This document shows, in pieces, positions 11,316 to 30,557 of a stretch of DNA of 64,000 nt. Source of the DNA: Candidatus Zhuqueibacterota bacterium (GTDB lineage: Bacteria > Zhuqueibacterota > Zhuqueibacteria > Thermofontimicrobiales > Thermofontimicrobiaceae); NCBI GenBank assembly GCA_049322915.1, contig JBMOPW010000020.1, forward strand, positions 96,001-160,000, read 5' to 3'. Position 1 is the first letter of the stretch; each line of letters begins with the position of its first letter. Under the pieces are notes generated by a model. The model made no database searches. It was not told where the DNA came from and was given only the letters and a program-made list of their open reading frames with translations. The translations under genes and the position numbers were made by a program.

Positions 11316-11333
11316 GGTTTTTTCCTCATAAAA

Positions 11334-12350: not shown

Positions 12351-12515
12351 GGTCGTGTTCCCAGTTAACTCAGTTTCCGATGAATTCAGGGTTTGTTTTC
12401 AAAATGTGTTTTCAATCGTCATGGCTCCATAAATTGAATCGGATGATTTTCATGAATCTGGCCGACGCCAGGGCGTACTGTGCAGCGCCGGCTGTCACAT
12501 TGCCGGCGGCTGCGA

Positions 12516-14318
12516 TTAAAACGCCTGTCCCACAGAGAAGTAAAACTCGCCGGCTGACTCGCCCGGCTGCCGATCGAATTTGCGGCTGTAGTCCACGCGC
12601 AAAATTCCCAGCGGCGAGTGATAGCGCAGGCCCAGTCCGGCGCCGCCGCGAAGTTCCACAGGGGATAAAAACGAACGGTTCGGCCAGACATTTCCGACAT
12701 CGGCAAAGGCGATGAAGCTGAATTTTTTAATCACCAGATACCGCAGCTCGATCAGATTGAGCGTGAGGAAGATATTGCCGCCGATGGGATTATCGTCCTC
12801 GTTTTTGGGACCGAGAAATTTCTCTTTGAATCCCCGCACCGAGTTGGCGCCGCCATTGAAAAACCGCTCCTGAATGGGTACGGTTTTGGACACGCCGTAA
12901 TTGCCCATCCAGCCCCAGCTCACAGCCGAGGCAATCACAAATCTGGACGTGATGGGAATGAACTGCCGGCGTCGACCGGTCAATTTGATGAACGTGGACG
13001 TGCCCTGCAGAAACGCGCCAGCGCTTTCAATGTCCAGCGACGAGAGCGAGCCTCTGGTCGTGTTGATCATATCGTCCCGCGAATCGCGGGTGACTGTGAA
13101 TATCAAGCTGCGCGTGCTGCCTTTTTCATTCTCTTTCAGCGGTTGACTGAGATCGTTGAGATCCACATCGACGATCTCGTAGCGATAGGCCAGGGACAGA
13201 TTGGAGAAATGTCCCAGCTTTCGGCCGAATGTCAGTCGGATGCCGTGCCGGTTGATGTTGTATCCCGGCTCTTCCCTGCGCTCAACGAAGCCATTGAAAT
13301 CGGTCTTTGTTCGCGTGGAAAATAGCCAGGGATCCGTGAATGACGCTTCGACCCGACGGGTGATGAAACTGGCGAATGTGGCCAGGCCAACCTGCTGCGC
13401 TCTTCCCATCAGATTATTTTGCAGCAATTCCCCTGAACCGCGCCATTTATCCAGTGTACCCCAGCCCAGACCGAAATTCAATTCGGCATTCTGCTTTTCG
13501 GTCACTTCGATCTGAATATCGCGAACGCCGGGCGCTCCCGGTGATTTCTCCATCGGTTTGATGAAGATGCTCTGGAACAGTCCGGTCAAATAGAGCTGCC
13601 GCTGACTCCGGAGTATTTTTTCATAATGATAAATATCACCGGTCTTGAAAACAAGCTCCCGCAAAATGACGTGCGGCCTGGTCTTTTTCAATCCGTTGAT
13701 TTTAATGGCGCCGATTTTCACCTGCGGTCCTTCGCTGATATTGAAATCGATCAGTATTTCATGTTTCTCCGGACTGGCTTTCAACGATGGCCGGATATCC
13801 GCTTCGATGTACCCCTGATTGGCGTACAGGATCAACAGGTTGTAATTGTCCTTTTCGAGCATCTGCTTCTTGAAAGGCTTGTTGATCCCGGACGTGATGG
13901 CGCGGAACAGGACCGGGTCGCTGAAAACGTGATTGCCGAAGAACGAGATGCCGGCAATGGTGGTGATTGCGCCTTCGTTGATTTCAATTTTCAAATCGAC
14001 CTGATTTTTCAGGCTATCGATTTTAATCTGATAATTTTTAATGGCCGCTTCCAGAAAACCTTCGTTGTGGTAGAAGCTGAGAATCACATTCAGGTCATCC
14101 AAAAAAAGGTTGCGCTGAAAGAAATCGCGGTTCAACCAGGAATGCTTTCGGGTGAGCATGATTTTTTTGAGGCTGCCCGCCTGATACGCTGCATTGCCGA
14201 TGAATTGGATATCGTTGACTTTGTATTTCCCCTGGCCTGAGGCAAAGGCCGGCGTCAGGAACGCCGCCAAAGCGCTGGCGAGGAGCAACAGCCGATTGAT
14301 AGAGCGCGAATTGACCAT
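12516..14318 (-). CDS. tamA: Omp85-family outer-membrane assembly factor (TamA-like, about three POTRA domains)
   Basis: Signal peptide, POTRA-like repeats (YHNEGF, YANQGY), SVRGF motif, SPLGILRVD and C-terminal F; adjacent to tamB. Confidence 0.8.
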   Translation of the reverse strand: MVNSRSINRLLLLASALAAFLTPAFASGQGKYKVNDIQFIGNAAYQAGSLKKIMLTRKHSWLNRDFFQRNLFLDDLNVILSFYHNEGFLEAAIKNYQIKIDSLKNQVDLKIEINEGAITTIAGISFFGNHVFSDPVLFRAITSGINKPFKKQMLEKDNYNLLILYANQGYIEADIRPSLKASPEKHEILIDFNISEGPQVKIGAIKINGLKKTRPHVILRELVFKTGDIYHYEKILRSQRQLYLTGLFQSIFIKPMEKSPGAPGVRDIQIEVTEKQNAELNFGLGWGTLDKWRGSGELLQNNLMGRAQQVGLATFASFITRRVEASFTDPWLFSTRTKTDFNGFVERREEPGYNINRHGIRLTFGRKLGHFSNLSLAYRYEIVDVDLNDLSQPLKENEKGSTRSLIFTVTRDSRDDMINTTRGSLSSLDIESAGAFLQGTSTFIKLTGRRRQFIPITSRFVIASAVSWGWMGNYGVSKTVPIQERFFNGGANSVRGFKEKFLGPKNEDDNPIGGNIFLTLNLIELRYLVIKKFSFIAFADVGNVWPNRSFLSPVELRGGAGLGLRYHSPLGILRVDYSRKFDRQPGESAGEFYFSVGQAF

Positions 14319-14324
14319 GTCGAT

Positions 14325-17300
14325 TTAATGAAATTTGAAGTTAAATTTCAGGTCGAGCCCGGATTTGCCTGTCTGACCTGTATTGCCAATGACGGACAGA
14401 TGTTTGTAAAGCTGATATCCCAGCTTGATTTGCTGTTCATTGGCGTGGCCGACAACCGTTGAATACGTGAGGTTGATGCGGTCGGATAGCTGCTTGGTGG
14501 CTGTCAGTCTCGGCCCCCAGTTTTTATCGACCTGAAAAAGATTGCCCTCGATTGAAATGCTCTCCAGCGAAAGCGTTCGGCCAATTTGCTGTTCCGTCAT
14601 CCCGGCAATTCGCTGGCTGGTGAATTCTTTGAACCGGTCCACGAGCAAGTCCTGAAATGTCGATGTCTTGCCGGCCTCCAGGCCGGTGAATAATGTCCCT
14701 CGGGTGCGCCCCACGGTCAGCATGGCTACAATGTCCGCTTTATCCAGCGAGGGATTGGACGTCAGTACCAGGTCCGGCTTTTCCATCTGTCCGGAAATTT
14801 TCAGAGTGATCTCGTAGCTTGTCTCCTTGATGGCCTGATAATCCGTCACCGTGCAGGTCGCCGTCAGATTGATGTGCGGATTGATCCGTTGCGGGTCGGT
14901 AAAATCGATCAATCCTTCGGTGATTTTGAATTTCCGGTCCAGGTAAAGCACATATCCCTTCTTCACCTCGAGCCGACCGGAGACATTCGGACGGGCGGCT
15001 GTCCCGAAAATATTGAGATTGGAACTCATTTTTATTTTGGCGATGTTGTTATCGATCCAGACGTTCTCCTGCCCCTGGACATTGACGTCCAGCAGCATGT
15101 TGTCGAGGATGCCGGCGACTTGCTGCGACGGACGCTTGGGCCATCGATTCAGCAGTTCTTCCAGTTTCGGCTTGAAATCCATCGTGTATTTCGCCTCGCT
15201 CAAATGAATGGCGCCCTTCAATTTCAGATTCTCTTCATCCTGAGTCAGCGTCAGATTGCCGTCCAGGATGCTCAATTTGAAGAGGTCGGAATGCGTCACC
15301 GTCGCCTTATTCAATTTCAGCGTGAATGAAGAATGGGTCAGTTTGTTGTCAGCGAGATGCGTTCGGCCAAAGAGCGCGAACGTCCCGTCGCCCAGGGCGC
15401 CGGAAAAATCGTCCAAAACCAGTTCATTATCCTGGGCCTGCATCGCTAAATTGATCGCCTGAATCGGCGTTTCCACATTGCGAAATTTCACCAGGCCATG
15501 TTGCACGAAGAAATAGCCATTGATGCGCGGCGCTGCAACTGGCCCGGCGACAAAGATTTTGCAGTTGGCCGATCCTTCGATAGTTTCCAGCGACGGCGCA
15601 AAGGGCGCTAACCAATCCAGATTCAGATTCCCGGCAGCGGCGAAGAAGTTCATTTCCTGAGTTTGCCCGGCGGATGCTTCCTGCGGAAAATCAACGGGCA
15701 GTGAGCCGCCAAATTTGACCCATCCATCATTGATTTTGAAACCGGATTCCGAGAATTTCAGCAACCCCCCTGTCCAACGGGCGCTGATTTGCAGGGAATC
15801 CAGGAGCGCCTCGGCCAATCCGATCTGATTGCTTTTGGCGCTGGCGTAAATCACCGGGGTGTCGGCTGAATCGGAATAGGAAAAAGATAATTCCGCCTCG
15901 CCGGCGAGAGTGACGTCCATCGAAAACAGTTCGGCGAGGGAGCCGAGATTCAGGCGATTGATTCGAAGGACGGCGTGCTTTTTTTCATCCGAAATATACC
16001 GGGCATCGAGCGCGATGTCGGCCACATCGGAAATCGAGCCATGCAACGAGCCGGCATACCCCTTTGTTTCCAGCAGTTCCATGACTCCCTGAAAAGAGAA
16101 TGGAGCGTTTTTCAGTCGGCCGGTGAACTGCTGCAATTGAATCCGGCGATCGTGGCATTGGGCGTGCACCGTTGCGGTGTCAATGGCTGCCAGCGCGGCT
16201 GAAAGAAATTTTCCATTCCGGATGTCGAGAAATCCATCGATTTCTCCCTGCAGGGCCGGGCCAGCCGCTGTCAACGCCGCTGTCAGTTCGCCGGCGATGG
16301 AGAAGGAATCCGGCAAAAACGGGTTGAGCCGTGTCAAATCGAAATGGTCGGCGACCAGCGTCAGCCGCGAGTCCGGTGACGCCGGCAGGTCAGCGAGACG
16401 TCCGTCAAAGGGCAAGCGCCCGTTGATCTCGATCATGCCGCCAGCATGCGAGGCGCGCACGCGGTGCAGCGTCAGCATTTCATCGGCGAATTCGATGTGA
16501 CCGGCGAGGGAGTCCAGCCGGGTGGTCGGCGACCCCAGATGGGATGTCGTCCATTCGAGCGCGATGTGGGGAGCGCGCAGGGGACCGGTCACAGCGCAGG
16601 CGAATGTCAACGCGCCGTCCAGTTCGGTGGGAAAGGACGCCAGTTCGAGCAGCGGAGCGATGCGAATCGCTTCGCCGGAGATGACGCCATTGACGGCGCC
16701 GCGGTTGAATGCGCCGGCGATGGTCAATTCACCGGCAGGCCGGGGAGAGGCGGCGGAATCGCCTTCGAACAATTGCACCGTCACGTCCGCGAACAGAGGC
16801 TGCGGCGCATCGATTTCTCCGCAAATCACAACCTGATTCGCTGCTTTGCTGGCCAGTATCCGATGGATGATAATTTTCTGGTCAGCGTAGGAGGCATGGA
16901 GCGACAGGCTATCCAGCGTGAAAGCATTGAGCCGGCAATTCTCCCAGCGCAAGTTTCCCGATGCCTGCAGTTGTTCGAGGCTGCCATTGGCCGCGACTTC
17001 GTACTGAAGCCGGCCGCTCATGGAATCGATGGGGCTGTCGGAGTTCAGGGCGCTCAGGTTCTCGGTTCGTCCCGCCGCCTGAAAATTATTCACAATAAGG
17101 CCGCTGTCCAGATAGGCAATGCTGCCGCGAGCATAACCTATCGGGAACTGGCTGAAATGTCCGTCCTGAAAAGTGAAATCGAGCGCTGCGGCCGGATGCT
17201 GTACTGTCCCGGAAACCTGGCCCTCAAAATCGAATTGCCCGTTGACATGCTGCACATTGAACAGCCCGGCGATGGATTCGATAGAGGAGAATGCGCCTCG

Positions 17301-18671
17301 AAACTTCGCCTGAATTGTGCTATTCGGGCGCACCTGCCCGCGAAGCGCAAACTGCGAATTTCCCTGGCGCAGTTCACAGGAAATGTCCCCACGGTCGATT
17401 GTGAAGCCGGCGTTGACATCGCCATAGCGCTGAGTTTGATTGACGATATTGCTGATCGTGAGACGACCCTGACCCATCGCGCTGGTCCATGCATCGGCGG
17501 CGCCGCTGAACTGAAGCTCGCCGGAAACTACGCCCCGTGGCGTCTGCGTGTTTTCATGGTACAGGATGGGCAGCATTTCACTCAGATGAAAATTGCTGAA
17601 TGCAGTTCGAAATGAAAATTGTGGCGTTGCATTTTCAACGGAAAGGGAGCCGCTACAGGCCATGTGCCCGTTGAAAGCGTTGACCGAAAAACGGGACAGG
17701 GTATAGGCGCCGTGAGCTGCGCGCCCGTCGGCGCTCAGTTCACGGATGGGAATGCCGTACAATGTGCCGGATGGTATGATCATTCGGACGTCGGCGTCGA
17801 GCTGACGCAGCGGCCCTTCCAGATGCGCATGCGCTTTCAGTTCCCCGCTGAAAGAACGTAGTGAGTCGTTGCTTTGCAGGGCTAACAACGGATTGAGCAG
17901 CGCAAGATTCACAACAGCATCCAGATTGCCATGCGACAGGGATGCGGATTTTAAATCGTATTTCCCGGAAGAAATGAGGGAGATATTTGCAGTACGAAGG
18001 CGCAGAGACGAGAGATTGAGGGTATCGGAAACAAGTGCAAAGTGGAGTTCCAGCGCATCTATCGGCTCGTTGAATCCTCGCCAACCCAGGCTTCCCCGGT
18101 CGATTTTCAATTCACCGACATAGCGATTGGAGACCGTGATCGAATTGAGCGTTGCGTTGATTTGGGGGAGTGTGATTTGTAGCGAATCCACGATGTCATG
18201 GTAATGCACGCTCAGATTGCTGATGTGCAGATGATCGATGTGCACGCTCATCCCTGTCTTGCCTGAGGCTTCGGCCGGGGCGTGATCCGATTTCCCTCGC
18301 CGGAGCGGTTGCGGCAGATTGTAGTCACCCTGTGAATCCTGGTAGATGTGGATCCGGGGCGACGTCAGCTCGATGGACGAGATAGCAATCTTCCCGGCCA
18401 CGAATCCCCAGAGGCTGTATTTCACCAGGATCCGATCGCAGGACACAAAGCGATGTGACGAATCGGCCTGGCTGAAATTCTGAATTCGCACATGGCTGAA
18501 CAGGTCCGTGCGCAGATCGCCCACAGTGACCTGCTGGCCGAAATATGCGCTCAACTCAGACTCCAGCGTCTGCCTCAGCAATTTCTGCCCGGGCGGTATC
18601 CGGAAAAAAATGTAACCGTTCACGAGAATCACGATAATCCCTATAGCGATTCGTGTCACAAATCGTTTCAT
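14325..18671 (-). CDS. tamB: Translocation and assembly module TamB (DUF490-type C-terminus)
   Basis: 1448 aa, N-terminal TM anchor, repetitive beta-rich body; C-terminal LTSNPSL..ADI.AML and LGYQL...GLDLKFNF. Confidence 0.85.
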   Translation of the reverse strand: MKRFVTRIAIGIIVILVNGYIFFRIPPGQKLLRQTLESELSAYFGQQVTVGDLRTDLFSHVRIQNFSQADSSHRFVSCDRILVKYSLWGFVAGKIAISSIELTSPRIHIYQDSQGDYNLPQPLRRGKSDHAPAEASGKTGMSVHIDHLHISNLSVHYHDIVDSLQITLPQINATLNSITVSNRYVGELKIDRGSLGWRGFNEPIDALELHFALVSDTLNLSSLRLRTANISLISSGKYDLKSASLSHGNLDAVVNLALLNPLLALQSNDSLRSFSGELKAHAHLEGPLRQLDADVRMIIPSGTLYGIPIRELSADGRAAHGAYTLSRFSVNAFNGHMACSGSLSVENATPQFSFRTAFSNFHLSEMLPILYHENTQTPRGVVSGELQFSGAADAWTSAMGQGRLTISNIVNQTQRYGDVNAGFTIDRGDISCELRQGNSQFALRGQVRPNSTIQAKFRGAFSSIESIAGLFNVQHVNGQFDFEGQVSGTVQHPAAALDFTFQDGHFSQFPIGYARGSIAYLDSGLIVNNFQAAGRTENLSALNSDSPIDSMSGRLQYEVAANGSLEQLQASGNLRWENCRLNAFTLDSLSLHASYADQKIIIHRILASKAANQVVICGEIDAPQPLFADVTVQLFEGDSAASPRPAGELTIAGAFNRGAVNGVISGEAIRIAPLLELASFPTELDGALTFACAVTGPLRAPHIALEWTTSHLGSPTTRLDSLAGHIEFADEMLTLHRVRASHAGGMIEINGRLPFDGRLADLPASPDSRLTLVADHFDLTRLNPFLPDSFSIAGELTAALTAAGPALQGEIDGFLDIRNGKFLSAALAAIDTATVHAQCHDRRIQLQQFTGRLKNAPFSFQGVMELLETKGYAGSLHGSISDVADIALDARYISDEKKHAVLRINRLNLGSLAELFSMDVTLAGEAELSFSYSDSADTPVIYASAKSNQIGLAEALLDSLQISARWTGGLLKFSESGFKINDGWVKFGGSLPVDFPQEASAGQTQEMNFFAAAGNLNLDWLAPFAPSLETIEGSANCKIFVAGPVAAPRINGYFFVQHGLVKFRNVETPIQAINLAMQAQDNELVLDDFSGALGDGTFALFGRTHLADNKLTHSSFTLKLNKATVTHSDLFKLSILDGNLTLTQDEENLKLKGAIHLSEAKYTMDFKPKLEELLNRWPKRPSQQVAGILDNMLLDVNVQGQENVWIDNNIAKIKMSSNLNIFGTAARPNVSGRLEVKKGYVLYLDRKFKITEGLIDFTDPQRINPHINLTATCTVTDYQAIKETSYEITLKISGQMEKPDLVLTSNPSLDKADIVAMLTVGRTRGTLFTGLEAGKTSTFQDLLVDRFKEFTSQRIAGMTEQQIGRTLSLESISIEGNLFQVDKNWGPRLTATKQLSDRINLTYSTVVGHANEQQIKLGYQLYKHLSVIGNTGQTGKSGLDLKFNFKFH

Positions 18672-19155
18672 TAGACGACCAGCTTCCCTTTTGAATTGAC
18701 ATCTTAATTATATTTCGGACTCATAAAAGGTATCATTAAATTCGTTTCGAAACAACATAATTATTTTTTATGAATGAATGAGTCCACTCTGAAAAAAATC
18801 AAAGGTAAATTTCTGTTCCCCGACTTAAAAGGCGGGGCTGTTCAAGGTGTCTAACTTTTAACTTTTTCAATTGAATAGCCATGTCATTTATAACGTGGAA
18901 AAGAAATCATAACCAACGTTTCAAAGCCTCATAAGGCTTTTCCTGATGTCCTTTCTCGTCCCGGTTGCTTGTTGAAATGCGCGCGGCGATTTCAGATCGT
19001 GCGGACGCTTTGATCTAAACTACACCGTCCCGGACATAAAATTTGCGCGTGTTCAGGAGAAAGAACTGGCATTATTTCATGGGGCAACAAATTTAAATTT
19101 GTGAACTTGGAGACCCTGGCTGCATGATTAGTAACAAATTCAAATGCAAAATGTT

Positions 19156-19182
19156 TCAAGAATTTTAAGTGACTGTCGATAA
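19156..19182 (+). promoter_or_regulatory. Putative sigma28 (FliA-like) promoter
   Basis: TCAAG-N14-GTCGATAA, about 50 nt upstream of the ATG at 19232. Confidence 0.45.
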
Positions 19183-19231
19183 ATGTATGGAATGTATATT
19201 AATAAAACTATATCCATTTTCTGGAGGAAAA

Positions 19232-20551
19232 ATGAAAAAAGTCCTTGTCGTGGATGACGATCCCAATGTATGTCGGTTATTCGAGGTGACGCTTCGGAAG
19301 GCCGGGTATGATGTTCGATGCGCGTTGAGCGCGAAGAATGCGTTGAAAATGGCCATTGACGACCATCCGGATATCATCCTCTCTGATTATATGATGCCGG
19401 ACCAGGATGGAAAGGAGTTCTGCAAAGTCGTTCGCAATCATAAAGAGCTTTCAGCCACGCCTTTCATTGTCATCACTGGCAAGGGAACTCCGAATTTGAA
19501 AACCCAGGGGCTGAGCGAATTATTCGATGATTACCTGGAAAAGCCGGTGAATTTGTCCTTTCTGGTCGCTAAAGTGAATGCAACGGTTCGGCGTGAAGAT
19601 GATACCAAACAGAAACACCAGCACCGCGTGAATCGCCTGTGGTCCATGGTCGTGGTACTGATGGTGTCCATCATCATCGCCGGAGGGATTGCGCTGGGAT
19701 TTCGGTTGCGCATCGAAAGCCAGGCGGCGGAAATCAAAAAACTGTTAGCCCTCAAAGAACGGTATGACAAGCGGATTCTGTCCATCGAAAATCAATTGGA
19801 CTCATTGGGATATGGGCTCGATGACCTCGACTTCGAACGGCTCAACGGTGAATTGAACCAACTGATTCGCAAGGCCAAACTTCTCTCCAGAGAATTGCCG
19901 AGCTCCGATGATCGGGATATTGTCATTCGGGGCATTAAGCAGGTGATGGCCGAGTTTGGCGAGGAGGATTATGTCGTCCCACCGCTATTCGCGAAAGAGG
20001 TCGGCAAGATGATTGACTTCTATGTCCGTGAGAAGCGCTACCATACCATCAGCAACCTTCGCCGGGCAAAGGAATATCTTCCCATGATCAAGGAAAAGTT
20101 CGCTGAAAAGGGTTTGCCTGAAGGGCTTGCTTACATTGCTATGGTGGAGAGCGGATTTAAGCCGGACGCCCTGAATAAAGCGTCCGGCGCGGGCGGCCTG
20201 TGGCAATTGATGCCGGCGACAGCCCGCGAATACGGCCTCCGCGTCAGTGGAAACATCGACGAACGGATGAATCCAGAAAAATCCACAGAAGTGGCGCGCG
20301 AGTACATCATGGACCTGATTGGCGTCTTTGGAAAGGAGTCCTTCATGTTGGCGTTGGCTTCGTACAATGTGGGCGATGGCCGCGTCCGCTATCATTTGAA
20401 ACAACTGTACAATCCATTTGAAGAACGCGATTTCTGGTACCTGTTCAGAAAACGCGCCCTGCCGGAAGAAACCCGGGAATATGTCCCCAAAGTGATTGCC
20501 TCCATTATCATCCATCGCAATCAGGAGAAATTCGGATTGAATGAGGGATAA
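19232..20551 (+). CDS. Receiver domain - TM helix - coiled coil - MltD-like lytic transglycosylase fusion
   Basis: REC: VLVVDDD, ILSDYMMP, ITG, EKP. TM: LWSMVVVLMVSIIIAGGIALGF. SLT: AMVESG, GLWQLMP, ASYNVG, ETREYVPKV. RBS GGAGG before ATG 19232. Confidence 0.88.
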   Translation: MKKVLVVDDDPNVCRLFEVTLRKAGYDVRCALSAKNALKMAIDDHPDIILSDYMMPDQDGKEFCKVVRNHKELSATPFIVITGKGTPNLKTQGLSELFDDYLEKPVNLSFLVAKVNATVRREDDTKQKHQHRVNRLWSMVVVLMVSIIIAGGIALGFRLRIESQAAEIKKLLALKERYDKRILSIENQLDSLGYGLDDLDFERLNGELNQLIRKAKLLSRELPSSDDRDIVIRGIKQVMAEFGEEDYVVPPLFAKEVGKMIDFYVREKRYHTISNLRRAKEYLPMIKEKFAEKGLPEGLAYIAMVESGFKPDALNKASGAGGLWQLMPATAREYGLRVSGNIDERMNPEKSTEVAREYIMDLIGVFGKESFMLALASYNVGDGRVRYHLKQLYNPFEERDFWYLFRKRALPEETREYVPKVIASIIIHRNQEKFGLNEG

Positions 20552-20740
20552 TTTCTCCACGCGCTGATACAGCGACCTGACCCTCCTGTAATTCTCAGGG
20601 GCTGTATCCAAAGTCTGGTCAGGCCAATGTAATCACAATATATCGATACGATATAGCATTTTATTTATGTTACGATTCAGGCATGTTGTCTTACCTCAAT
20701 AACCACACGTCACGAAGTTACAGAAAGATGCCAACTGATC

Positions 20741-20889
20741 GTTCGGGATATTTCCCGATTCTATTCTTTGGACATTTTTAAGGGTTCGGGATATCTATCC
20801 CGATTCTGGACTCTGGACATTTTCAAGGGTTCGGGATATTTCCCGAATCTGATCTTTGGACATTTTCAAAGGTTCGGGATTTCCTGAAT
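20741..20889. repeat. Tandem 43-45 bp repeat (three full units plus one partial), each with a TCGGGA-N-TCCCGA-like palindrome
   Basis: Units start at 20741, 20784, 20829 and 20872; approximate consensus GTTCGGGATATTTCCCGATTCT..TCTTTGGACATTTTCAAGG. Confidence 0.9.
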
Positions 20890-21559
20890 GTCCCAGCCGT
20901 TGCCTGCGCTGGATACATATCCAGCGCGATCGGCGTAGTTACGTATTTATCAATAAATTGGGGAGCAAGGGAAGCAGTTCCTGCCTAAAGATTTTGCCTG
21001 TGTCCGGCGCACCCGCAAGCATTCAGCGATTCAACTAATCTGCAACTGCGACTTTACGATTGATCGATCCGCTTCCAACTGACCGAATTTCTGTCAATTT
21101 TTAAAAGTTGTTCCTCCGCGCGCGACGAGCGCCTGTAACATAGATTATTTTTTTGAGATAAAGGCACGCCAGTCGTGGGTATCTCATTGTTTTTCAACCA
21201 AAAAAAAATTCAAGCGATTCTTTAGTTTTATTTAACAGCGTTTTATCGGTAATAAGAATGGAAATTGCATACTCATTTGATGTAGCAGATGGCATGTTCG
21301 CCTTCTCAATTTCCAGCCGAATAGATTCCAGATGAAGTTGACAGCGGGCTATCCTGGCTGGAGATTGCCAATTGCAGGTCACAGGAGGATCGCTGCGGCA
21401 TTGATTCGATGAAATGGTTGATGTGCTTCGATGCCCGGTTTGCAAAGCGATTGAGGACTGCGCTTGCTGAATTTGAGCATCTGTCCGGGTTACACCGGGG
21501 CAAGTACATTCGTTGATGTGTAAACCGAAAATAGGATCAATGAGGATGTGAGGTGGGGC

Positions 21560-21751
21560 ATGATGAAGATCTTTGCTGACGATGTTGTAAAAATCAGGTT
21601 GAAAATGAATCTCACCCAGGAAGAATTTGCCCGGCGGGTGGGTGTCACGCTCTCAACGATTCATCGCTGGGAGAAGGGAAAATCGCTGCCTTCCAAATTG
21701 GCGATTCAACGATTGGTCAGTCTGGAGCGGAATGGTATTCACCATGTGTAA
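21560..21751 (+). CDS. XRE/Cro-family helix-turn-helix regulator
   Basis: IRLKMNLTQEEFARRVGVTLSTIHRWEKGKSLP; RBS GAGGTG. Confidence 0.88.
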   Translation: MMKIFADDVVKIRLKMNLTQEEFARRVGVTLSTIHRWEKGKSLPSKLAIQRLVSLERNGIHHV

Positions 21752-21816
21752 CTTTCAAAAGGAACCTCCTGTGCTTTTTGATTCATCAGAACTATTTGCG
21801 CGCATGGAGCAGTGAC

Positions 21817-23649
21817 ATGCTCAATCTCCGTTCAATGTCCATCAAAACCAAGCTGATTGTCAGTTTCACCCTGGTTGCCGTCGCTTCGCTGACGATCGGC
21901 TACGGCTTTCTCATGGTGAATGACATCAATGCATTGAGGCAGGACCTCATCAAAGAAGTATTGCTGGAAACAAAGCTCATCCGGGAGGCATGCCGCCATT
22001 CATTTGCAGCCGGCGATTCCTTGCAAACCCTCACCATACTGAAAAGCCTGGCGTCCGTTGTGCCCCTTGACACGATCATAATTTACTCCGGCGATTCCAC
22101 CGTGTTTGTGAGCGTCCCCGGCCATAAAAATCGGGTTGCGATGAACTATCCCGGCCAGTCGGACCGGCATTTTTTCATAGGTAATTATTTACATGTTTTC
22201 AACGCTATGTTACCTAAAGAGCCAGAAGCCGGTTTCATTCATGTGATCTCATCCTCGGCGCTGTTGCAACTCACGATTGAACGCTATATCCTCACGACGA
22301 TTCTGTTCATGGTCGCGACCGGACTGTTTTCCTTTGTCATCGCCAAAAAATTCAGTCCTCTCATTTCTGATCCAATCATTCAGTTATCAAATGCCTGCAA
22401 TAATATTGCCCAACAAGGCGATTACTCTGTCCGCGTTAATATTTCAAATCAGGATGAGATCGGAAAGCTGGCGGACGAGTTCAACCGCATGATCGGGAAG
22501 ATAGAGACGCAACAGAAAATCGAGGCGAAAACGCAGCAAGCGCTGAAGGAGAATGAGGAGAAATATCGCGTACTTTTCGAAGCTTCGACTGATGCTGTAT
22601 TTCTGGAAACGATTGATGGGGATATTCTCGATTGCAATCACGCTGCCTGCCAGATGTTCCGCGCCCGAAAGGACCAGTTGATCGGGCTGAATGTCAGCGC
22701 GCTGGTGCCGGCTGAACTGGCAAAAAAGCTGCCGGAGATTGTTAGTCGGGAACGATTGAATCAGGGCGTTTTTCTCGAGGCGGAAAATGTACGACACAAC
22801 GGCCAGGTTTTTCCGGTCGAAGTGAACACCAAATTGACGCGAGTGAAGGGTATGGAGGTCGTCATTGCCTACATCCGCGATATTACCCAGCGCAAAATCG
22901 ATGAGAAAGAAATTCGCGCGCTGAACGCCGACCTTGAAAAACGCGTGAATGATCGAACCGCCCAGCTCGCCGCTGCGAACAAGGAATTGGAATGTTTTTC
23001 CTATTCTGTTTCGCACGATTTACAGGCGCCGCTTCGGGCGATCGATGGGTTTTCCCGACAGGTGTACGAACGATACGCTCAGGTTGTGGACGACTCCGGG
23101 CGAAAAAACCTGACGGTCATACTGGACCAGGTGAAACGGATGAATCAACTGATCCATGATCTGCTCAATTTTTCCCGGACAAATCAGAAAGAACTCAAGG
23201 TGCAGGAGATAGATTTCAACAGCCTGGTCAATGACGTCGTGACGGAGTTGAAAGAGCAAATCGACGCGACGAGGATGATTGAATTCAATATTTCACCAGT
23301 TCCGAAAGGACTCGGAGACCCGGCGTTGCTTCATCAGGTGTTCGTAAATCTCATCGGCAATGCGATCAAATTCACCCGGCATAAGGAGCATGCCATCATC
23401 GAGGTTGGATGTTTGCCGGATTCGCGCCGGCATGTTTATTTTGTCAAAGATAACGGCGTCGGTTTTAAAACCGAATATTCGGACAAACTGTTCGGCGTGT
23501 TTCAGAGGTTACACACGCCGGAGCAATTCGAAGGGACAGGCGTGGGACTGGCCATTGTGCAGCGCATCATTCACCGGCATGGGGGAGAAGTCTGGGCAGA
23601 GTCTGCCGTGGATCAAGGCGCTGCGTTTTATTTTTCATTGCCACCTTGA
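21817..23649 (+). CDS. Membrane sensor histidine kinase (2 TM, periplasmic sensor, HAMP, PAS, HisKA, HATPase)
   Basis: DEIGKLADEFNRM (HAMP), SVSHDLQAP (H-box), NLIGNAIKF, DNGVGF and GTGVGLA. Start chosen by GGAG RBS. Confidence 0.92.
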   Translation: MLNLRSMSIKTKLIVSFTLVAVASLTIGYGFLMVNDINALRQDLIKEVLLETKLIREACRHSFAAGDSLQTLTILKSLASVVPLDTIIIYSGDSTVFVSVPGHKNRVAMNYPGQSDRHFFIGNYLHVFNAMLPKEPEAGFIHVISSSALLQLTIERYILTTILFMVATGLFSFVIAKKFSPLISDPIIQLSNACNNIAQQGDYSVRVNISNQDEIGKLADEFNRMIGKIETQQKIEAKTQQALKENEEKYRVLFEASTDAVFLETIDGDILDCNHAACQMFRARKDQLIGLNVSALVPAELAKKLPEIVSRERLNQGVFLEAENVRHNGQVFPVEVNTKLTRVKGMEVVIAYIRDITQRKIDEKEIRALNADLEKRVNDRTAQLAAANKELECFSYSVSHDLQAPLRAIDGFSRQVYERYAQVVDDSGRKNLTVILDQVKRMNQLIHDLLNFSRTNQKELKVQEIDFNSLVNDVVTELKEQIDATRMIEFNISPVPKGLGDPALLHQVFVNLIGNAIKFTRHKEHAIIEVGCLPDSRRHVYFVKDNGVGFKTEYSDKLFGVFQRLHTPEQFEGTGVGLAIVQRIIHRHGGEVWAESAVDQGAAFYFSLPP

Positions 23650-23827
23650 TTATAAGCCTATAACGTCATGTAGCAAATTTATCACACTATGTAGAATTTT
23701 TCATCTATCCAAAATACACTAGATAACGATAATAAATCTATGTGACGTGGTAGGGTTAATTTTCCCCGGAACTTGTCTTGTGCTGTCGCCTGTGATTCGT
23801 CAGCAACTCAACTCATGTAAGGAAAGT

Positions 23828-26560
23828 ATGCAAAAGCAATTGCGGATATTAATGCTGGAAGATAATCCGCTGGACGCGGAATTGATACGGCTGGCCATTG
23901 AAAAAGACTGTATCGATTTCACCTATGTCCGGGTGGATGAACAGGATTCTTTTTACGAAGAACTGAGTAACTTCAATCCGGATATCGTCCTGTCGGACTT
24001 CAGATTGCCGCGATTCAATGGACTGACTGCTCTGGACCTGGTCAAGAGCAAATCGCCGGGCACGCCTTTTATTATTGTGACCGGCGCTCTGGACGAAGCG
24101 ACTGCGGTGGAATGCATCAAGTTCGGCGCAGTCGATTATGTGCTCAAAGATCAGCTAGTTCGGCTTGGCGCGGCCATCAAAAAAGCAATGGAGTTGAAAG
24201 AGGAAAAGTACAAGAAAGAACTCGCTGAGGAAGCGCTGCGGCAGAGTGAAGAGAAGTATCGGACGCTTGTAGAAAACGCGAACGAAGCGGTGATTGTGCT
24301 CCAGGATGATCAGTTCAGATTCACCAATACCAAGGCGGAGCAGATCACCGGATACAATCAGGTGCAATTGGCTTCCATGTCATTTCTGGACATGATCGTC
24401 CCTCATGATCGCGAGGAGGTCAAAGCAAGTCATCAGCGGTGGCTGCTCGAAGGCGAGGAAATTGGCGTGCTTCAGTATAAAATCATTGACCGGAGCGGAA
24501 GCCTGAAATATCTGGGCGGTAAGGGAGTATTAATCGACTGGAACGGACGACCAGCCATGCTGGCGTTCATCGGGGATATTACCCAGCGCAAGAAGGCTGA
24601 ACTCGCTGTGCTGGAGAGCGAGCAGAAGTTTCGGGCGTTTTTTGAAAACGCGCCGGAATATTACTACATCATCTCTCCGGATGGAAAAATTATCGATGTC
24701 AATAATAGCGCGCTGAATGTGCTGGGCTATCTCAAAAATGAGATCATTGGACTATCCATTTTTGCCACGGTATTCGATCGCTCATCGAGACCGTCCGCTG
24801 AGGCGATCTTTCAGGAATGCAAAACCTGTGGGCAGGTTCGCGATCAGGAACTGACGATTATCACGCGACAGGAAGAAAAGCGAATCGTGCTGCTCAGCGC
24901 GGATGTCGTGGTCGATCCCGAGGGGCAGATCATCTATTTACTTTTTGTTCAACGGGATATTACAGAACGCCTGAGGACGACTGCTCTGCTCAATGAACAG
25001 GCGAGATTGCTGGAGCTTTTCTTCAGCTATACGCTCGATTGCATGATCATTATGGATAAAAAATTCAATTACATCCGGGTGAACAACGCCTTTGCCCGGG
25101 CCTGTCATCGGAAAACATCGGAATTCCCGAATCGGAACCATTTCGACTTTTTCCCATCCGAGCCCAGGGATATTTTTGAAATGGTGGTGCAGACCAAACA
25201 CCCCTGTACGGCCATTGCGCGCCCAATTGTCTTTCACAAGAAAGATAAAAATGAACTGACTTTCTGGGATTGGGCGCTGGTCCCAATTCTCGACGACAAG
25301 AACGAGGTGGATCTGCTCATCTTTTCAATGCGGAATGTGACGGATAGAAAAAAAGCAGAAGAAGAATTGCAATTGAGCGAAGAGCGGTTCCGCTCGCTCA
25401 TTTTCAAAATCCAGGCAGCGGTGATGGTGTACGACTCCAACAAAAAAATAGTGATGAGCAATACAATTGCCCAGGATTTACTGGGCATCCGTCAGGCAAA
25501 GGCCAACTACACGGTAGATAATTCCGGTCTTCTGGAATTCTACCGCGATGATGGCAGCCTCATGACGCCCGAGGAATATCCAATCAATCAGGTGATGAAG
25601 TCCCGAAAGCCGCTGCGCGATGTGATTCTTGGCGTGAACAATCCGTTCAAAAAGACCACCGTCTGGATTCTGGTCAATGCCGATCCGGTGTTCGATGATT
25701 CCGGCAATATCCTGCAGACCATTATCAGTTTTGTCGATATCACGGAGCGAAAAAAACATGAGGAGCAGTTGCGCGAACTGAATCAAGAACTGATCCGTTC
25801 GAATAAAGAACTGGAAGAATTCACCTACGTTGTCTCCCACGACCTGAAAGAGCCACTGCGCAAAATGGCTTCGTTCAGCGAATTTCTCTTTGAGGACTAC
25901 TCGCACCTGCTGGACGAACAGGCCATTTCCTATCTCAATCGCATTCAGGATGCTGCCGAACGGATGAAAGGGTTGATCGAGAATCTGCTGGAAATTTCCC
26001 GAATCGGGACGCGCAAGAAAGAACTGGTTGTGGTGGACACCAACCATCTGGTGGAGGAAGTGTTGCACCTGCTGCAATTTTCCGAGACAAAATACTCCAA
26101 TAAAGGATTCAGAAATTTTGTCGATACTAACGATAATATAGTGATGCTTTCCAGGTTGCCTGCTGCATTGGCGGACCCGACGCAGTTGCACCAGGTCTTT
26201 CAGAATATCATCTCCAACGGATTGAAATTTCATCGGTCAGACGTGACCGCGGAATTAAAAATTACCGCCAAAAAGCGGGGCGAATGGATCACCTTTGCAA
26301 TTCAGGATAATGGAATTGGAATTGAACAACGGTACCTTGAAAAGATATTTATCATCTTTCAACGGTTGCACACGAAAGAGATGTATCCCGGAACAGGTGT
26401 TGGATTGGCGTTGTGCAAGAAGATTATCGAGCGGCATAATGGCCGTATCTGGGCGGAGTCGAAGTACGGAAGTGGAAGTACGTTTTATTTTACGTTAAGG
26501 GAGGGAAAGAGCAATGAAACCCAAAGAAGAACGTATGCCCATTCTGTTAGTCGAAGATGA
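23828..26560 (+). CDS. Cytoplasmic hybrid histidine kinase (REC, about four PAS, HisKA, HATPase)
   Basis: N-terminal LEDN / LSDF receiver, repeated DIT.RK PAS ends, VSHDLKEP, DNGIGI and GTGVGL. Confidence 0.92.
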   Translation: MQKQLRILMLEDNPLDAELIRLAIEKDCIDFTYVRVDEQDSFYEELSNFNPDIVLSDFRLPRFNGLTALDLVKSKSPGTPFIIVTGALDEATAVECIKFGAVDYVLKDQLVRLGAAIKKAMELKEEKYKKELAEEALRQSEEKYRTLVENANEAVIVLQDDQFRFTNTKAEQITGYNQVQLASMSFLDMIVPHDREEVKASHQRWLLEGEEIGVLQYKIIDRSGSLKYLGGKGVLIDWNGRPAMLAFIGDITQRKKAELAVLESEQKFRAFFENAPEYYYIISPDGKIIDVNNSALNVLGYLKNEIIGLSIFATVFDRSSRPSAEAIFQECKTCGQVRDQELTIITRQEEKRIVLLSADVVVDPEGQIIYLLFVQRDITERLRTTALLNEQARLLELFFSYTLDCMIIMDKKFNYIRVNNAFARACHRKTSEFPNRNHFDFFPSEPRDIFEMVVQTKHPCTAIARPIVFHKKDKNELTFWDWALVPILDDKNEVDLLIFSMRNVTDRKKAEEELQLSEERFRSLIFKIQAAVMVYDSNKKIVMSNTIAQDLLGIRQAKANYTVDNSGLLEFYRDDGSLMTPEEYPINQVMKSRKPLRDVILGVNNPFKKTTVWILVNADPVFDDSGNILQTIISFVDITERKKHEEQLRELNQELIRSNKELEEFTYVVSHDLKEPLRKMASFSEFLFEDYSHLLDEQAISYLNRIQDAAERMKGLIENLLEISRIGTRKKELVVVDTNHLVEEVLHLLQFSETKYSNKGFRNFVDTNDNIVMLSRLPAALADPTQLHQVFQNIISNGLKFHRSDVTAELKITAKKRGEWITFAIQDNGIGIEQRYLEKIFIIFQRLHTKEMYPGTGVGLALCKKIIERHNGRIWAESKYGSGSTFYFTLREGKSNETQRRTYAHSVSRR

Positions 26561-26978
26561 TCCGGATGATATTGAAATTACCCGGCGCGCGTTTCAGGAG
26601 AATCATATTAATCATCCTCTGTACATCGTGCGGGATGGCGCGGAAACAATAGAATTTCTGAAGAAGACCGGCAGATACATGAGCGATGGGAATCTGCCCC
26701 GACCCGGCCTCATTTTACTCGATTTGAATATCCCTCGCATCGATGGCCGCGAAGTTCTCAGACAGATAAAGCAGGATCCTGAGTTGAAATATATTCCGAC
26801 TGTGGTCCTTACTACCTCGAAATTCGATGAAGATATCATGCAGTCCTACCATAGCGGCGCAAATACATTCATTACCAAGTCGTTGCACTTTAAAGAATTT
26901 TCCAAAATGATCCGAATCATTAGTCAGTACTGGCTGGAAGTAGCAGAAATTCCAGGCAACCCTGACCATAAAAAATGA
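26514..26978 (+). CDS. Single-domain response regulator (Rcp1-like)
   Basis: LLVEDDPDD, LILLDLNIP, LTTS, FITK and the C-terminal YW typical of this subfamily. Confidence 0.92.
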   Translation: MKPKEERMPILLVEDDPDDIEITRRAFQENHINHPLYIVRDGAETIEFLKKTGRYMSDGNLPRPGLILLDLNIPRIDGREVLRQIKQDPELKYIPTVVLTTSKFDEDIMQSYHSGANTFITKSLHFKEFSKMIRIISQYWLEVAEIPGNPDHKK

Positions 26979-27085
26979 CGCGCGGGGCAAATCACCAAAA
27001 CCGTCACCAGGAATTGAAAAAGGGATTCGCTTCATTTTTATCACCCCGGAATGCTTTTTCGAAACGGCGTATATCCATAGCGCGG

Positions 27086-27272
27086 CAAATCCGCAAATCC
27101 CAAATTCGAAAATGATCAAATTCCAAATAAATTCCAAATTTCAAATACAAAATTAAAGCCCATGTCTATGATCAAACCAATAAAAGCTGACAATTTGTTT
27201 TTTCGGTTTGGAATTTTGGATATTGCCATTTGGGATTTAGTTGTGATTTAGGATTTGAGTCCTGGGATTTTC
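27086..27272. repeat. Inverted pair of degenerate heptamer arrays (CAAATYC-like, then GRATTTG-like)
   Basis: CAAATCC/CAAATTC/CAAATTT units at 27086-27155 face ATTTGGG/ATTTAGG/TTTGGAA units at about 27206-27272. Confidence 0.7.
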
Positions 27273-27323
27273 TTGCACAAAAAACAAAGATTTAATTTGT
27301 AATACTATAGAGGATTTCGTTGA

Positions 27324-30300
27324 ATGATAAAGGTTTTATACATTGAAGACGATTTCGAAGATGCGCTGATCGTCAGTCGTTATCTCACCCAGAGCCGTGA
27401 TGCGATTGATTTGCATGTGGCGTCCACCGGCGCGGAAGCCCGGGACAAGCTGCAGCACAACTCCTTCGACTGCGTGCTGCTGGATCAGAATTTACCTGAT
27501 ACCAACGGCCTGGCGCTTCTGCAGGACATCAAATCGAAATGGCCTAAAATGCCCGTGCTGATGCTCACCGGCCAGAAGGATGACCGGCTCACTGTCGGTT
27601 CTTCCATTTTGGGAGCGGACGATTTCATTGTCAAGGATGAAATCAGTACGGCGGTTCTGACCGAGACCATTTTCAGCGTCGTTCATCTGGGGGAGAACAT
27701 TGAGGAAGATTCAGACCTACGAGCGGGCGCCGTCCCACTGGGAGAGACAGAATCGACAGCTTTTAAGCATGGCGCGTACGGAATTTATGAGACGCTCATC
27801 AATACCATGACTGAGGGATTGATTTCGCTGGATTTGAACGGGACGATTCTGTTTGCCAATCAACAGGCCGGGGATCTGTTGAAGCGTCCTGTGAATTCAC
27901 TTTTTGGCGAACGAGCCAGCGTGCTGTTTGACGCATCTGATTTTCGCCTGTTCGAAGAAAAATTCACTGAGAATAAAAAGGGATTAACGCTCAAATATGA
28001 GGCGCAATTCACATGTCTGGATGGGACCAGGATCCCTGCGATTATCAGTCAGAGTCCCTACTATGACCGATGGCATCATCTGGCCGGCTGCCTGATGGTG
28101 GTCACGGATATCAGCGACCGCAAGCAGGCAGAAAATATGCTCCGCGCTTCGGAGAAAAGATTTCGTGATATTGCTGAGAATACGACGGATTTGATCTGGG
28201 AGATGAATCCGTTTCGGTGTTTCACCTATGTCAATCCACTGGTCAGGAACATCCTCGGCTTCAGTCCTGAGGAGATTCTCGGCCGGTGCATCGATGAAAT
28301 AATGCTCGCATCCAGTCAGGACAGAACGGGCAATGGGAACGGGGCCGATTCTGACAACCGTCTCTCGGTGAAGGTCGTTGAGGGAATCTGGCGTCATAAA
28401 AATGGCAGTGAAATTATTCTCGAAATGAGCAGCATCCCGATTTACGATGCCGTGGGAAAGTTGCTCGGCTACCGCGGCATCAGTCGCGATATCACCGATC
28501 GCAAGCAGATGGAAGAAGCGCGGCTTCGCGAGCGGGAGATGGATCTGAATCTGGAGCGCTGCATTTCTCAGGTTTCCAGGCATCTCATTGAATCCGAAAA
28601 TGTCGATGAGGCCATCAGGCACAATCTCGAATTGATCGGAAAAACGTTCAATGCCGATCATTGCTTTGTGTACACCCGGGGCGATGTCGATAACCCGGAT
28701 CATTTTTTTAAAAAATATTTCTGGAATGCACGATCAGGCGCTGACTGGTTCGCTGATCAGACCCACATGGTTCTCGATGCCAATTCTTCCTGGGCCAAAC
28801 TTTTATCTTCGAATCAGGTCGTGATCCTGCCGGATGCTGCCCACGCTGGCGATGATTCCGTCTCTGAAGCGGACTATTTACGCGATTTGCGCATCAGCGC
28901 CATCCTGTTGGTCCCGCTCTTTTTGCAGGACGCCTTCTATGGCTATGTTGGGATCGATTACATCGCCAAAGCGCACAATTGGCGGATGACAGAAATTGCC
29001 GCTGTGAGAACAATGATTGAAAACATCAGCAAGGTATTCGAGCGCAAACATGCCCGCGCTGCACTGTCCCAGCAGAAGGCAAAGTACGAGACCGTTATTA
29101 AAAGCACCAGTGATGGCATCATACTCCTGGATAATAATCTGAAAATCACGCTGATAAATCCTGCAGCGCTGAAAATACTGCACTGCTTTTATCGCGATAC
29201 CAAGGCCAAATCGATCCTCAAAGACCTGGGCGATATTTCCGTCGGCGATATCCTGACCACGATTAAACAGAATAACCTGAGTTCAATATCCAGAGAAATC
29301 AAAATCAGCAATGGAATCATGCGATTTTTCAATGTCGTCTTCTCGTCTGTGAAAAATATCAAAGCCGAGGTGATCGGACTGGTGGTGAATATTCATGAAA
29401 TTTCCGAGATTCGCAATGCACAGGAACAGTTGATTCACTCATCGAAATTAGCGTCCCTGGGACAACTCGCTGCCGGCGTCGCCCACGAGTTGAACAATCC
29501 CCTCACCTACATGTTGGGCTATGCGGAGCTATTGCACTCCAACCAGGAAGACCCTGAAGTCAAATTGAAATTGTCGAAAATACTGGATGGCGGGCGTCGC
29601 GTGAAAGGCATCATCGAAGACATGCTGGAGTTCTCCCACAACCAGACGCAGAACCAGGAATTGTCCGATATTAACAAGACCATTGAAAAGACATTGACGC
29701 TCATGGGCAGACGGCTTTCCAATCATAATATCCACCTGATCAAATCGTTCGATAAACGGCTGTCGCTGGTCTATTGCAATAAAGGCGAGTTGCAGCAGGT
29801 GTTTTTGAACCTGATTCAAAATGCGTTCGATGAGCTGGTGCGCAGCAAGGTCGGCGATAAAATCGAGATTGTGACCGAGCAAATTTCCCGGCAGAATATC
29901 CGTTTGAAATTCATCGATAACGGACCAGGCATGTCCGAGGAAATCCAGCAGCGCATCTTTGAACCGTTCTTTACCACCAAAGCCCCGGGCGAGGGAACCG
30001 GGCTGGGACTGAGCATCAGCTATAAAATCATCAAAAAGCACGATGGCGCCATCACGGTCAAAAGCAGCGTGGGAAAAGGAACCACATTCATCATCGAACT
30101 GCCGACGCGAGTGGACCAGGTTTCGAAGAATTCCGACATCACTGATCTGGATCTGGAATTCAAAGGGGAGGGCAAGTCCATTGAGACGGCGAAGGTCGTC
30201 ATCGTGGAGGACGAAGAAAAGAGCGATTCCCTGGTCAAAATCCTGTTCCGCACCGAGCATCAACTTGTCACCATCAGTCAGATTTCCCAGGCGCTGGATA

Positions 30301-30557
30301 TGCTGCGCACCGACGATCTGGATGTGCTGCTCGTGGACATCAAAAGCTTGAGACACATCAAGCAGTACATTCAAAACGGATTCATCCCACAGTGGAAGAG
30401 CCGAATCATTTTTCTCTTTGACTATCCGCTCAATGAACGGGTGAAGGCGTCTCTCTGGGGGAAAGGCATTGGCTGTCTGGCCTTGCCATTCAAAATTGAT
30501 GAGGTGATTCAATTGGTGAATGCAGTGCTGGAGCGCAGCAAAAAGGCCGGAAGATGA
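27324..30557 (+). CDS. Hybrid histidine kinase (REC, PAS, PAS, GAF, PAS, HisKA, HATPase, degenerate REC)
   Basis: N-terminal IEDD / [40 protein letters not shown]. The C-terminal receiver lacks the conserved Lys (CLALPF). Confidence 0.92.

Follow-up and report, generated by a model that had tools for sequence, protein, structure and literature searches.

A receiver domain joined across the membrane to a predicted MltD-like lytic transglycosylase in the Zhuqueibacterota

How potentially lethal wall-cleaving enzymes are restrained is a long-standing question, and to our knowledge almost no direct regulators of lytic transglycosylases are known. In FtsEX-EnvC/PcsB/RipC, ATP hydrolysis by an ABC transporter is relayed to a wall hydrolase, with a separate amidase that is bound and not fused. 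Two published accounts describe further precedents for the concept. In Enterococcus faecalis, the PASTA kinase IreK phosphorylates a cytoplasmic segment of the transmembrane hydrolase MltG, with a phenotypic effect (PMC12369325), and LapD carries cyclic di-GMP (c-di-GMP) signals from the inside out to a periplasmic output domain (PMC3032553). The gene described here was found in a 64,000-nucleotide stretch of a Candidatus Zhuqueibacterota genome (GCA_049322915.1, contig JBMOPW010000020.1, positions 96,001 to 160,000), which is called the window throughout. Its product, called REC-SLT after its receiver (REC) and transglycosylase (SLT) domains, appears to be a bitopic inner-membrane response regulator with a periplasmic peptidoglycan-cleaving enzyme as its predicted output.

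Domain architecture, topology and predicted structure of REC-SLT

The gene is a single stop-free open reading frame of 439 amino acids. Its start site is supported because the ATG at 19232 lies 4 nucleotides past a GGAGG (19223-19227) and the same start methionine is found in all 15 full-length relatives. Pfam assigns Response_reg to residues 4-115 (E 5e-22; cut-off 30.2 bits) and SLT to residues 289-393 (E 7e-25), and little else. The same scan found no LysM, no winged-helix DNA-binding domain (Trans_reg_C), and no HAMP, GGDEF/EAL or LapG-binding periplasmic domain. A preliminary description, made from the letters alone, had proposed one continuous frame with a canonical receiver, a single transmembrane helix at about 19637-19702, an MltD-like SLT domain with its catalytic Glu codon at 20147-20149 and GLWQ and SYN motifs, and no LysM repeats. 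Each of these points was borne out. The receiver residues D8-D9-D10, D52 (in ILSD), T82 and K104-P105 are all present, the enzyme has E306 in VES, GLWQ at 322-325 and SYN at 377-379, and between them lies one strongly hydrophobic segment whose best 19-residue Kyte-Doolittle window scores 2.66. The features of the gene are as follows.

19232..20551, + strand: gene for the receiver, transmembrane, stalk and MltD-like lytic transglycosylase protein, 439 codons plus stop
19232..19594, + strand: predicted cytoplasmic receiver domain, OmpR/PhoB-like, residues 1-121 (Pfam; PDB sequence and structure matches)
19385..19387, + strand: codon of Asp52, the predicted phospho-acceptor (invariant in 16/16 sequences)
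19595..19636, + strand: juxtamembrane linker, residues 122-135, basic, variable in sequence and fixed in length (alignment and model)
19637..19705, + strand: single predicted transmembrane segment, residues 136-158 (Kyte-Doolittle)
19706..19939, + strand: predicted periplasmic stalk, residues 159-236, helical to residue 191 and then two shorter helices
19940..20548, + strand: predicted MltD-type lytic transglycosylase catalytic module, residues 237-439 (Pfam SLT; 8rhe matches)
20147..20149, + strand: codon of the catalytic Glu306 of the ES motif (Glu in 159/159 aligned relatives)

The receiver has the (beta/alpha)5 fold, acidic pocket, Asp, Thr and Lys of CheY-like receivers (PF00072). Its closest sequence matches in the PDB are YycF (E 1e-23, about 40% identity), PhoP, VicR, ArlR, MtrA and CpxR, and when aligned to YycF it shares the pattern DDY...KP...A(K/R)V.A..RR. 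Residues 1-123 of the model superimpose on solved receivers of the OmpR/PhoB type and others with Z of 18.6-20.9 and root-mean-square deviations (rmsd) of 1.5-2.1 A; the RpaA receiver gives Z 20.9 and rmsd 1.6 A. A feature search of the ESM Atlas returned only generic single-domain receivers, at a score (0.81) too low to carry weight. Membership in the OmpR/PhoB subfamily extends to the receiver only: the DNA-binding domain is absent, and the NCBIfam PhoB/YycF/OmpR models match the receiver part alone, at 79-94 bits against cut-offs of 296-340.

Among solved structures, the best match of the enzyme module (residues 237-439) is MltD of P. aeruginosa (8rhe; sequence E 3e-21), which aligns over 186 residues of chain 84-271 with Z 19.9, rmsd 2.9 A and 28% identity. 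The module has the SLT fold and ES-motif Glu of family 1 lytic transglycosylases (PF01464), and the activity predicted for it would cut MurNAc-GlcNAc bonds and leave 1,6-anhydro-MurNAc. REC-SLT is MltD-like in its catalytic module only. It is not an MltD orthologue, because LysM and a lipoprotein signal are both missing, its score with the NCBIfam MltD equivalog (NF008050) is 103.6 bits where the cut-off is 508, and its genome also encodes a separate SLT+LysM protein of 691 aa. The stalk (159-236) had no sequence match in the PDB, and the structural alignment with MltD begins only at residue 236-237.

Conservation was read from an alignment of the window protein with its 15 full-length relatives, 16 sequences that are 54-96% identical. 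All 16 have one hydrophobic segment at the transmembrane position (136-143), and two have a second window, barely over the cut-off, within the transglycosylase domain. The N-in/C-out topology, with a cytoplasmic receiver and a periplasmic enzyme, is well supported as a sequence-based prediction, because lysine and arginine are richer on the N side of the segment in 16/16 sequences (mean 6.25 against 3.44 in the 15-residue flanks) and no signal peptide precedes the receiver. The preliminary description had set the two domains on opposite sides of the membrane, as this charge bias also does.

D8, D9, D10, D52, T82, K104, P105 and E306-S307 are invariant in 16/16 sequences, as are G322/W324/Q325 and S377/Y378/N379. 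There are no insertions or deletions between residue 1 and about residue 435, while the linker and transmembrane sequences vary. Within the stalk region the receiver-bearing (REC) clade conserves Y178, D179, R181, Q188-S191, D198-F201 and V249-P251. Since the phosphorylation-site and catalytic residues are invariant at 54-96% identity, both phosphorylation and catalysis are argued to be under selection. Pseudo-receivers usually lose some of the residues of phosphorylation chemistry; here all of them are kept down to 54% identity, which speaks against the idea that the receiver is purely structural, serving dimerisation or stability and never phosphorylated in vivo, on what would be an ordinary housekeeping membrane-anchored transglycosylase. 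That idea gains something from the lack of a linked kinase and from transmembrane-anchored forms of the enzyme with no recognisable head (P0143, P0144, P0190 and P0232), and we consider it improbable.

The structure of REC-SLT was predicted with AlphaFold2 from the 16-row alignment, as a monomer and with no membrane (mean predicted local distance difference test score, pLDDT, 78.7; predicted template modelling score, pTM, 0.53). In this model residues 108-191 form one helix made up of receiver alpha5, the 14-residue linker, the transmembrane segment and the first 33 residues of the stalk (block pLDDT 69-83). The stalk helix has a heptad-like pattern over about 160-191. The coiled-coil stalk of the preliminary description therefore stands as far as the helix goes; a coiled coil seems plausible, and dimerisation is only presumed. 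A homodimer prediction with two full-length copies scored 0.26 against a mark of 0.42; it was made without controls and is counted neither way.

Based on these features, we suggest that phosphorylation controls periplasmic wall cleavage across the membrane, a tentative reading to which we give somewhat less than an even chance. In receivers of the OmpR/PhoB type, the alpha4-beta5-alpha5 face is used for phosphorylation-dependent dimerisation. An unlinked histidine kinase would phosphorylate Asp52 of REC-SLT, and this would alter the corresponding face of its receiver. Because alpha5 continues through the linker and transmembrane segment into the first stalk helix, the change could pass mechanically to the periplasmic module, as a shift in dimerisation, a rotation or a piston movement. 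The pairing, the orientation or the reach to the wall of the enzyme module would then be altered, and cleavage would be switched on or off. The signal would run from inside to outside, opposite to that of a sensor kinase.

Other phospho-signalling heads on the same chassis

Relatives of the membrane-anchored enzyme were sought by searching residues 130-439 against 1.84 billion cluster representatives, which gave 672 matches at E<=1e-30. Architectures were counted with Pfam over the top 150 of the 672 representatives (with precomputed domains for three), and the whole REC clade counts as one representative. The counts were as follows.

Receiver (REC): 1/150 representatives
Single FHA domain: 55/150 representatives, one of them on a weak YscD-type match only
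Two FHA domains: 5/150 representatives
Ser/Thr protein kinase: 4/150 representatives
MltD-like with LysM: 39/150 representatives
SLT as sole Pfam domain: 46/150 representatives, many of them short or with unassigned N-terminal regions

Longer proteins, sought separately, included one of 915 aa with kinase+TIR+SLT and one of 791 aa with FHA+SLT. The FHA, kinase and kinase-TIR-SLT proteins, from Acidobacteriota, Gemmatimonadota, Myxococcota, Fibrobacterota and others, share the chassis of REC-SLT at 35-46% identity over the C-terminal 60-75%. They differ from it in having an FHA head, which reads phospho-Thr, or a Hanks-type kinase head, and in a variable linker from head to membrane. Source names assign the FHA forms to Bryobacterales and other Acidobacteriota, Gemmatimonadales, Myxococcaceae and Chitinispirillia. 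A single hydrophobic segment precedes the catalytic Glu in 54/55 FHA, 5/5 double-FHA, 4/4 kinase and 10/10 REC forms, and in these forms the median distance from this segment to the Glu is about 160-167 residues. The catalytic Glu, G322, W324 and Q325 are each present in 159/159 aligned relatives of all architectures.

REC-SLT is thus one of several forms of a bitopic MltD-like chassis on which the cytoplasmic phospho-signalling head is interchangeable. That FHA- and kinase-headed relatives exist lends phospho-signalling control more credibility, and it leaves the fusion less unique as an idea. Cytoplasmic phospho-signalling control looks like a general theme of this group of enzymes, with the receiver as its two-component version.

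The same relatives also bear on the main rival explanation, in which the enzyme is constitutively active and the phosphorylated receiver binds a cytoplasmic partner, such as the division, elongation, polar or polysaccharide-export machinery, and so determines the place or the timing of the enzyme. No conformational signal would cross the membrane. FHA is a phosphothreonine-dependent protein-binding module and is the commonest head on the chassis (60/150 representatives), and the FHA-to-membrane distance varies so widely, with the transmembrane segment starting anywhere in residues 102-354, that a tether fits better than a rod. A stand-alone paralogue of the receiver lies in a polysaccharide cluster or just upstream of the gene for REC-SLT, a hint that the two receivers have a cytoplasmic partner or pathway in common. 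In the REC clade, by contrast with the FHA forms, the linker has one fixed length in all 16 sequences and the helix of the model is unbroken. A simple tether needs neither, and these two features favour control across the membrane. We regard recruitment by such a putative partner as rather less likely than not.

The kinase forms raise a third explanation. In it the periplasmic module reports the status of the wall, by binding or processing glycans, and thereby alters how the receiver gains or loses phosphate; depending on the wall, REC-SLT would act as a sink or competitor for phosphate in a pathway that branches between it and the stand-alone paralogue. Ser/Thr kinases do occur on the chassis (4/150 representatives and one kinase+TIR form), in wall-sensing kinases the PASTA sensor domains occupy the position that the enzyme module has here, and a close single-domain paralogue could share a kinase with the fusion. 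The catalytic Glu and substrate-groove motifs are invariant in 159/159 relatives, so the module has been kept as an enzyme and not as a mere binder; moreover, receivers accept phosphate, and no downstream cytoplasmic output is attached to this one. We regard signalling from the outside in as improbable.

The kinase-headed proteins themselves (P0270, which is the 915-aa form with TIR, and P0203, P0227, P0246 and P0248) each have a Hanks-type kinase, one transmembrane segment and an MltD-like module, and HRD, DFG and APE are kept in 3/4 kinase heads among the 150 representatives. Their layout resembles that of PASTA kinases, with an enzyme replacing the sensor. In 24 neighbourhoods of FHA-SLT genes no widely shared neighbour was found. 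One apparent cluster of FHA-SLT neighbours was rejected because, in high-GC genomes, it consisted of the reading frame antisense to the gene.

The REC clade is monophyletic in both trees that were built, with 99 SH-aLRT (Shimodaira-Hasegawa-like approximate likelihood-ratio test) support in a quick tree of 159 rows and 100/100 in a careful tree of 64 rows chosen from the 159, in which all 10 REC sequences were kept. In the quick tree the clade falls within a starred set that also contains 14 FHA forms. In the careful tree it is the sister group of all forms with FHA or kinase heads (support 89/89). The two trees disagree on whether the REC clade is nested among the FHA forms or sister to them, and heads may have been exchanged in either direction.

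Taken at its widest, the proposal is that REC-SLT is the first response regulator with an extracytoplasmic output, in which Asp phosphorylation gates an autolysin through an alpha5-transmembrane-stalk helix, and that it may represent the His-Asp side of a large class, so far unrecognised, of bitopic MltD-like transglycosylases that wire Ser/Thr signalling (FHA, Hanks kinase) or Asp signalling to peptidoglycan cleavage in many diderm phyla. We put this forward as a speculative claim that is more probably wrong than right.

Distribution, gene neighbourhood and candidate kinases

The preliminary description had allowed that the fusion might be an assembly chimera or a singleton. It recurs in independent assemblies. 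Among the best 120 matches in 5.8 billion proteins there are 15 full-length relatives with both domains, at 99-100% query cover and 54-96% identity, and 3/15 are labelled candidate division KSB1 bacterium at source. In contigs taken from one genome per species, 5/52 related loci, all five from public metagenome-assembled genomes, are full length; KSB1 stands in the titles of three and 'uncultured Cytophagia' in those of two. Within the phylum, 6/167 genomes have a full-length match, the window's genome included, and all six belong to one order of KSB1/Zhuqueibacteria. By family, the carriers are 1/13 genomes plus the window's own genome in the first, 1/2 in the second and 3/5 in the third.

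A 40.8-kb contig of one sequencing run (X1), possibly from the source sample, spans 18900-20800 and crosses the junction with 0 differences. In another metagenome, a diverged 4.9-kb contig matches the receiver part and the enzyme end with the same 1054-nt spacing, and runs X2-X4 gave small diverged pieces only. The window's genome measures 6.25 Mb in 45 contigs and is 96% complete, and the gene sits deep within a long contig. With 15 relatives, five loci, six genomes and a spanning contig, an assembly chimera or a frame-fused pair of genes is ruled out for practical purposes.

The gene is followed by signalling genes on the same strand. Beyond a hairpin and about 1 kb of DNA lie a small helix-turn-helix (HTH) gene and then genes for a HAMP-PAS kinase, a hybrid kinase with REC and PAS domains, a lone REC, and a hybrid kinase with REC, PAS and GAF domains.

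20743..20758, + strand: hairpin resembling a terminator, its tail rich in T, about 190 nt past the stop (consensus scan)
21778..30557, + strand: HAMP-PAS histidine kinase, REC-PAS hybrid kinase, single REC and REC-PAS-GAF hybrid kinase (context)

The three histidine kinases lie at 21778-23649, 23747-26560 and 27324-30557. The preliminary description had named them as candidate phosphate donors. They are indeed present, and as donors they are unsupported, because the first is absent in the congener and the other two are found in only 1/5 other carriers. They also start at least about 1.2 kb away, past the hairpin and the HTH gene. Only the same-genus genome retains this arrangement of genes, and even it lacks the first kinase: at the same-genus locus L001, about 555 bp (12285-12840) separate the flanking matches, with no counterpart of 21778-23649. 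The HAMP-PAS kinase beside the small HTH gene is, from this comparison, a recent gain or loss. Full-length orthologues of the second and third kinases, the hybrids, were found only in that same-genus genome, G124. There the orthologue of the REC-PAS hybrid kinase (G124:C37:15185-17899) has one in-frame TGA, for which a sequencing error, a frameshift or recoding is possible. The single REC nearby shares just 21% identity with the fused receiver. Although very many kinases are encoded in these genomes, REC-SLT behaves like an orphan response regulator.

A closer relative of the receiver lies elsewhere. The stand-alone receiver is 54-56% identical to the fused one and shares the stretch GLS..FDDYLEKPV..S.L.AKVNA..RR. 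Its copies are as follows, with the strand given where it was noted.

G000:C13:70132-70518 (L062 1480-1893, - strand; L067 10112-10525, - strand): receiver paralogue
L061 1450-1866: receiver paralogue
L060 1486-1869: receiver paralogue
L004 4059-4442: receiver paralogue

In the window's genome and its congener the paralogue overlaps a glycosyltransferase gene of family GT2, and in the window's genome the 20 kb around it form a Wzx/Wzy-type polysaccharide cluster with a flippase, GT2, GT1, Wzy_C, a methyltransferase, a hexapeptide transferase and an AsnB-like gene. No kinase is encoded by any of the 12 reading frames scanned in this cluster. In two other carriers (L004 and L060) the paralogue lies immediately upstream of the REC-transglycosylase gene. 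These placements are only a hint that the paralogue and the fused receiver may share a kinase, and that wall opening may possibly be linked to surface-polysaccharide production.

Upstream of REC-SLT in the window, and divergent from it, are a TamB gene and an Omp85/TamA-like gene. The minus strand at 9498-18671 holds genes for an M14 carboxypeptidase-like protein, a metallophosphoesterase, an Omp85/POTRA (TamA-like) protein and a 1448-aa TamB/AsmA-like protein. Three carriers at 63-64% identity have an AsnB-like amidotransferase and YdjC as divergent neighbours instead, and Ddl follows in the two longer loci, L002 and L003. Downstream, these two loci have a RelA/SpoT-like protein and a sigma-54 activator, and the fifth locus differs again. 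The AsnB-like and YdjC neighbours are at L002 5800-9881, L003 862-4921, L004 952-3807 and L060 2121-3368, with the D-Ala-D-Ala ligase in L002 and L003. An AsnB-like gene also stands at the end of the polysaccharide cluster that holds the receiver paralogue in the window's genome. The preliminary description had imagined the enzyme opening the wall for a trans-envelope machine; no link to such a machine appeared, and the neighbourhood differs between clade members.

Scans of the surrounding DNA gave little. The terminator scan found 3 sites against 3.7 expected from shuffled sequence, and the promoter and terminator scans together did not rise above shuffles. A short sigma-54 promoter consensus matched 47 times in the window against 67.7 expected, with no match in 18672-19231, and an Rfam scan of 18000-22000 gave 0 matches. 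Upstream in the intergenic DNA, at 18872-18942, lies a dispersed repeat, about 70 nt long, that contains two small hairpins. Genome-wide it is matched 32 times at 76-100% identity (self included), and short high-depth contigs in several metagenome runs match it as well.

Several observations weigh against phosphorylation-driven control across the membrane. REC-SLT is rare and patchy, present in 6/167 genomes of the phylum and full length in 0/146 of those outside the three families, and it therefore cannot be a core wall function. No cognate kinase could be identified from neighbourhoods or orthologues across the carriers, and the clade loci compared have no consistent functional partner. The continuous helix comes from a membrane-free monomer model of moderate confidence, and such models favour long helices. 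The head-to-membrane linkers of the FHA relatives vary in length, so rigid transmission is not general to the chassis, and recruitment may be its ancestral logic. The stretch was also found in no RNA run, from which no bearing on transcription is drawn.

Comparison with described systems

The combination appears to be new in two ways, as a response regulator with a periplasmic enzymatic output and as an MltD-like enzyme with a cytoplasmic signalling head, while the kinds of component are known. The preliminary description knew of no characterised protein with this architecture. The literature search agrees: in the portions of the literature it covered, with most subscription journals outside it, no REC-SLT or FHA-SLT fusion was described, which leaves absence unproven, and the phrases 'membrane-anchored', 'transmembrane' and 'membrane-bound response regulator' were not found. 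The term 'transglycosylase' was likewise not found in two response-regulator censuses.

If the proposed control is true, it would extend response-regulator outputs to the periplasm and run a transmembrane signalling helix in reverse. A transglycosylase fused to a receiver would also be a self-contained, chemically triggerable test of whether cytoplasmic phosphorylation can switch wall cleavage. REC-SLT is rare and confined to an uncultured lineage. Within a much larger family that is unstudied, it is the member that is clearest and open to chemical triggering. Its relatives with FHA or kinase heads occur widely, among others in Acidobacteriota and Myxococcota; they point to a general principle and may be more tractable than uncultured KSB1.

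LapD relays cytoplasmic c-di-GMP binding over the inner membrane to a periplasmic hydrolytic activity (PMC3032553), as REC-SLT may relay phosphorylation. Unlike REC-SLT, it uses a degenerate EAL/GGDEF and HAMP input, controls a separate protease by binding, and involves no His-Asp phosphotransfer. REC-SLT resembles LapD-type receptors in logic only, as their domains are absent from it. MltG, as described with IreK, is likewise a transmembrane cleaver of glycan strands, and its cytoplasmic segment is phosphorylated upon wall stress with functional consequences (PMC12369325). It differs in belonging to the YceG-like family, in being phosphorylated on Ser/Thr, within a short cytoplasmic segment, by a kinase that is a separate protein, and in having no receiver.

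MltD (8rhe/8rhf/8rhi) shares the catalytic module with its ES, GxWQ and YN motifs. REC-SLT differs from it in lacking LysM and any lipoprotein or secretion signal, and in having an internal transmembrane anchor, a cytoplasmic receiver and an extra stalk of ~80 residues. The OmpR/PhoB regulators, such as YycF/WalR, PhoP, VicR and CpxR, share the receiver and its alpha5 signature. Where they carry a winged helix, REC-SLT has none, and its putative output is extracytoplasmic and enzymatic. WalR controls wall hydrolases through transcription; in REC-SLT the hydrolase is fused directly to the receiver.

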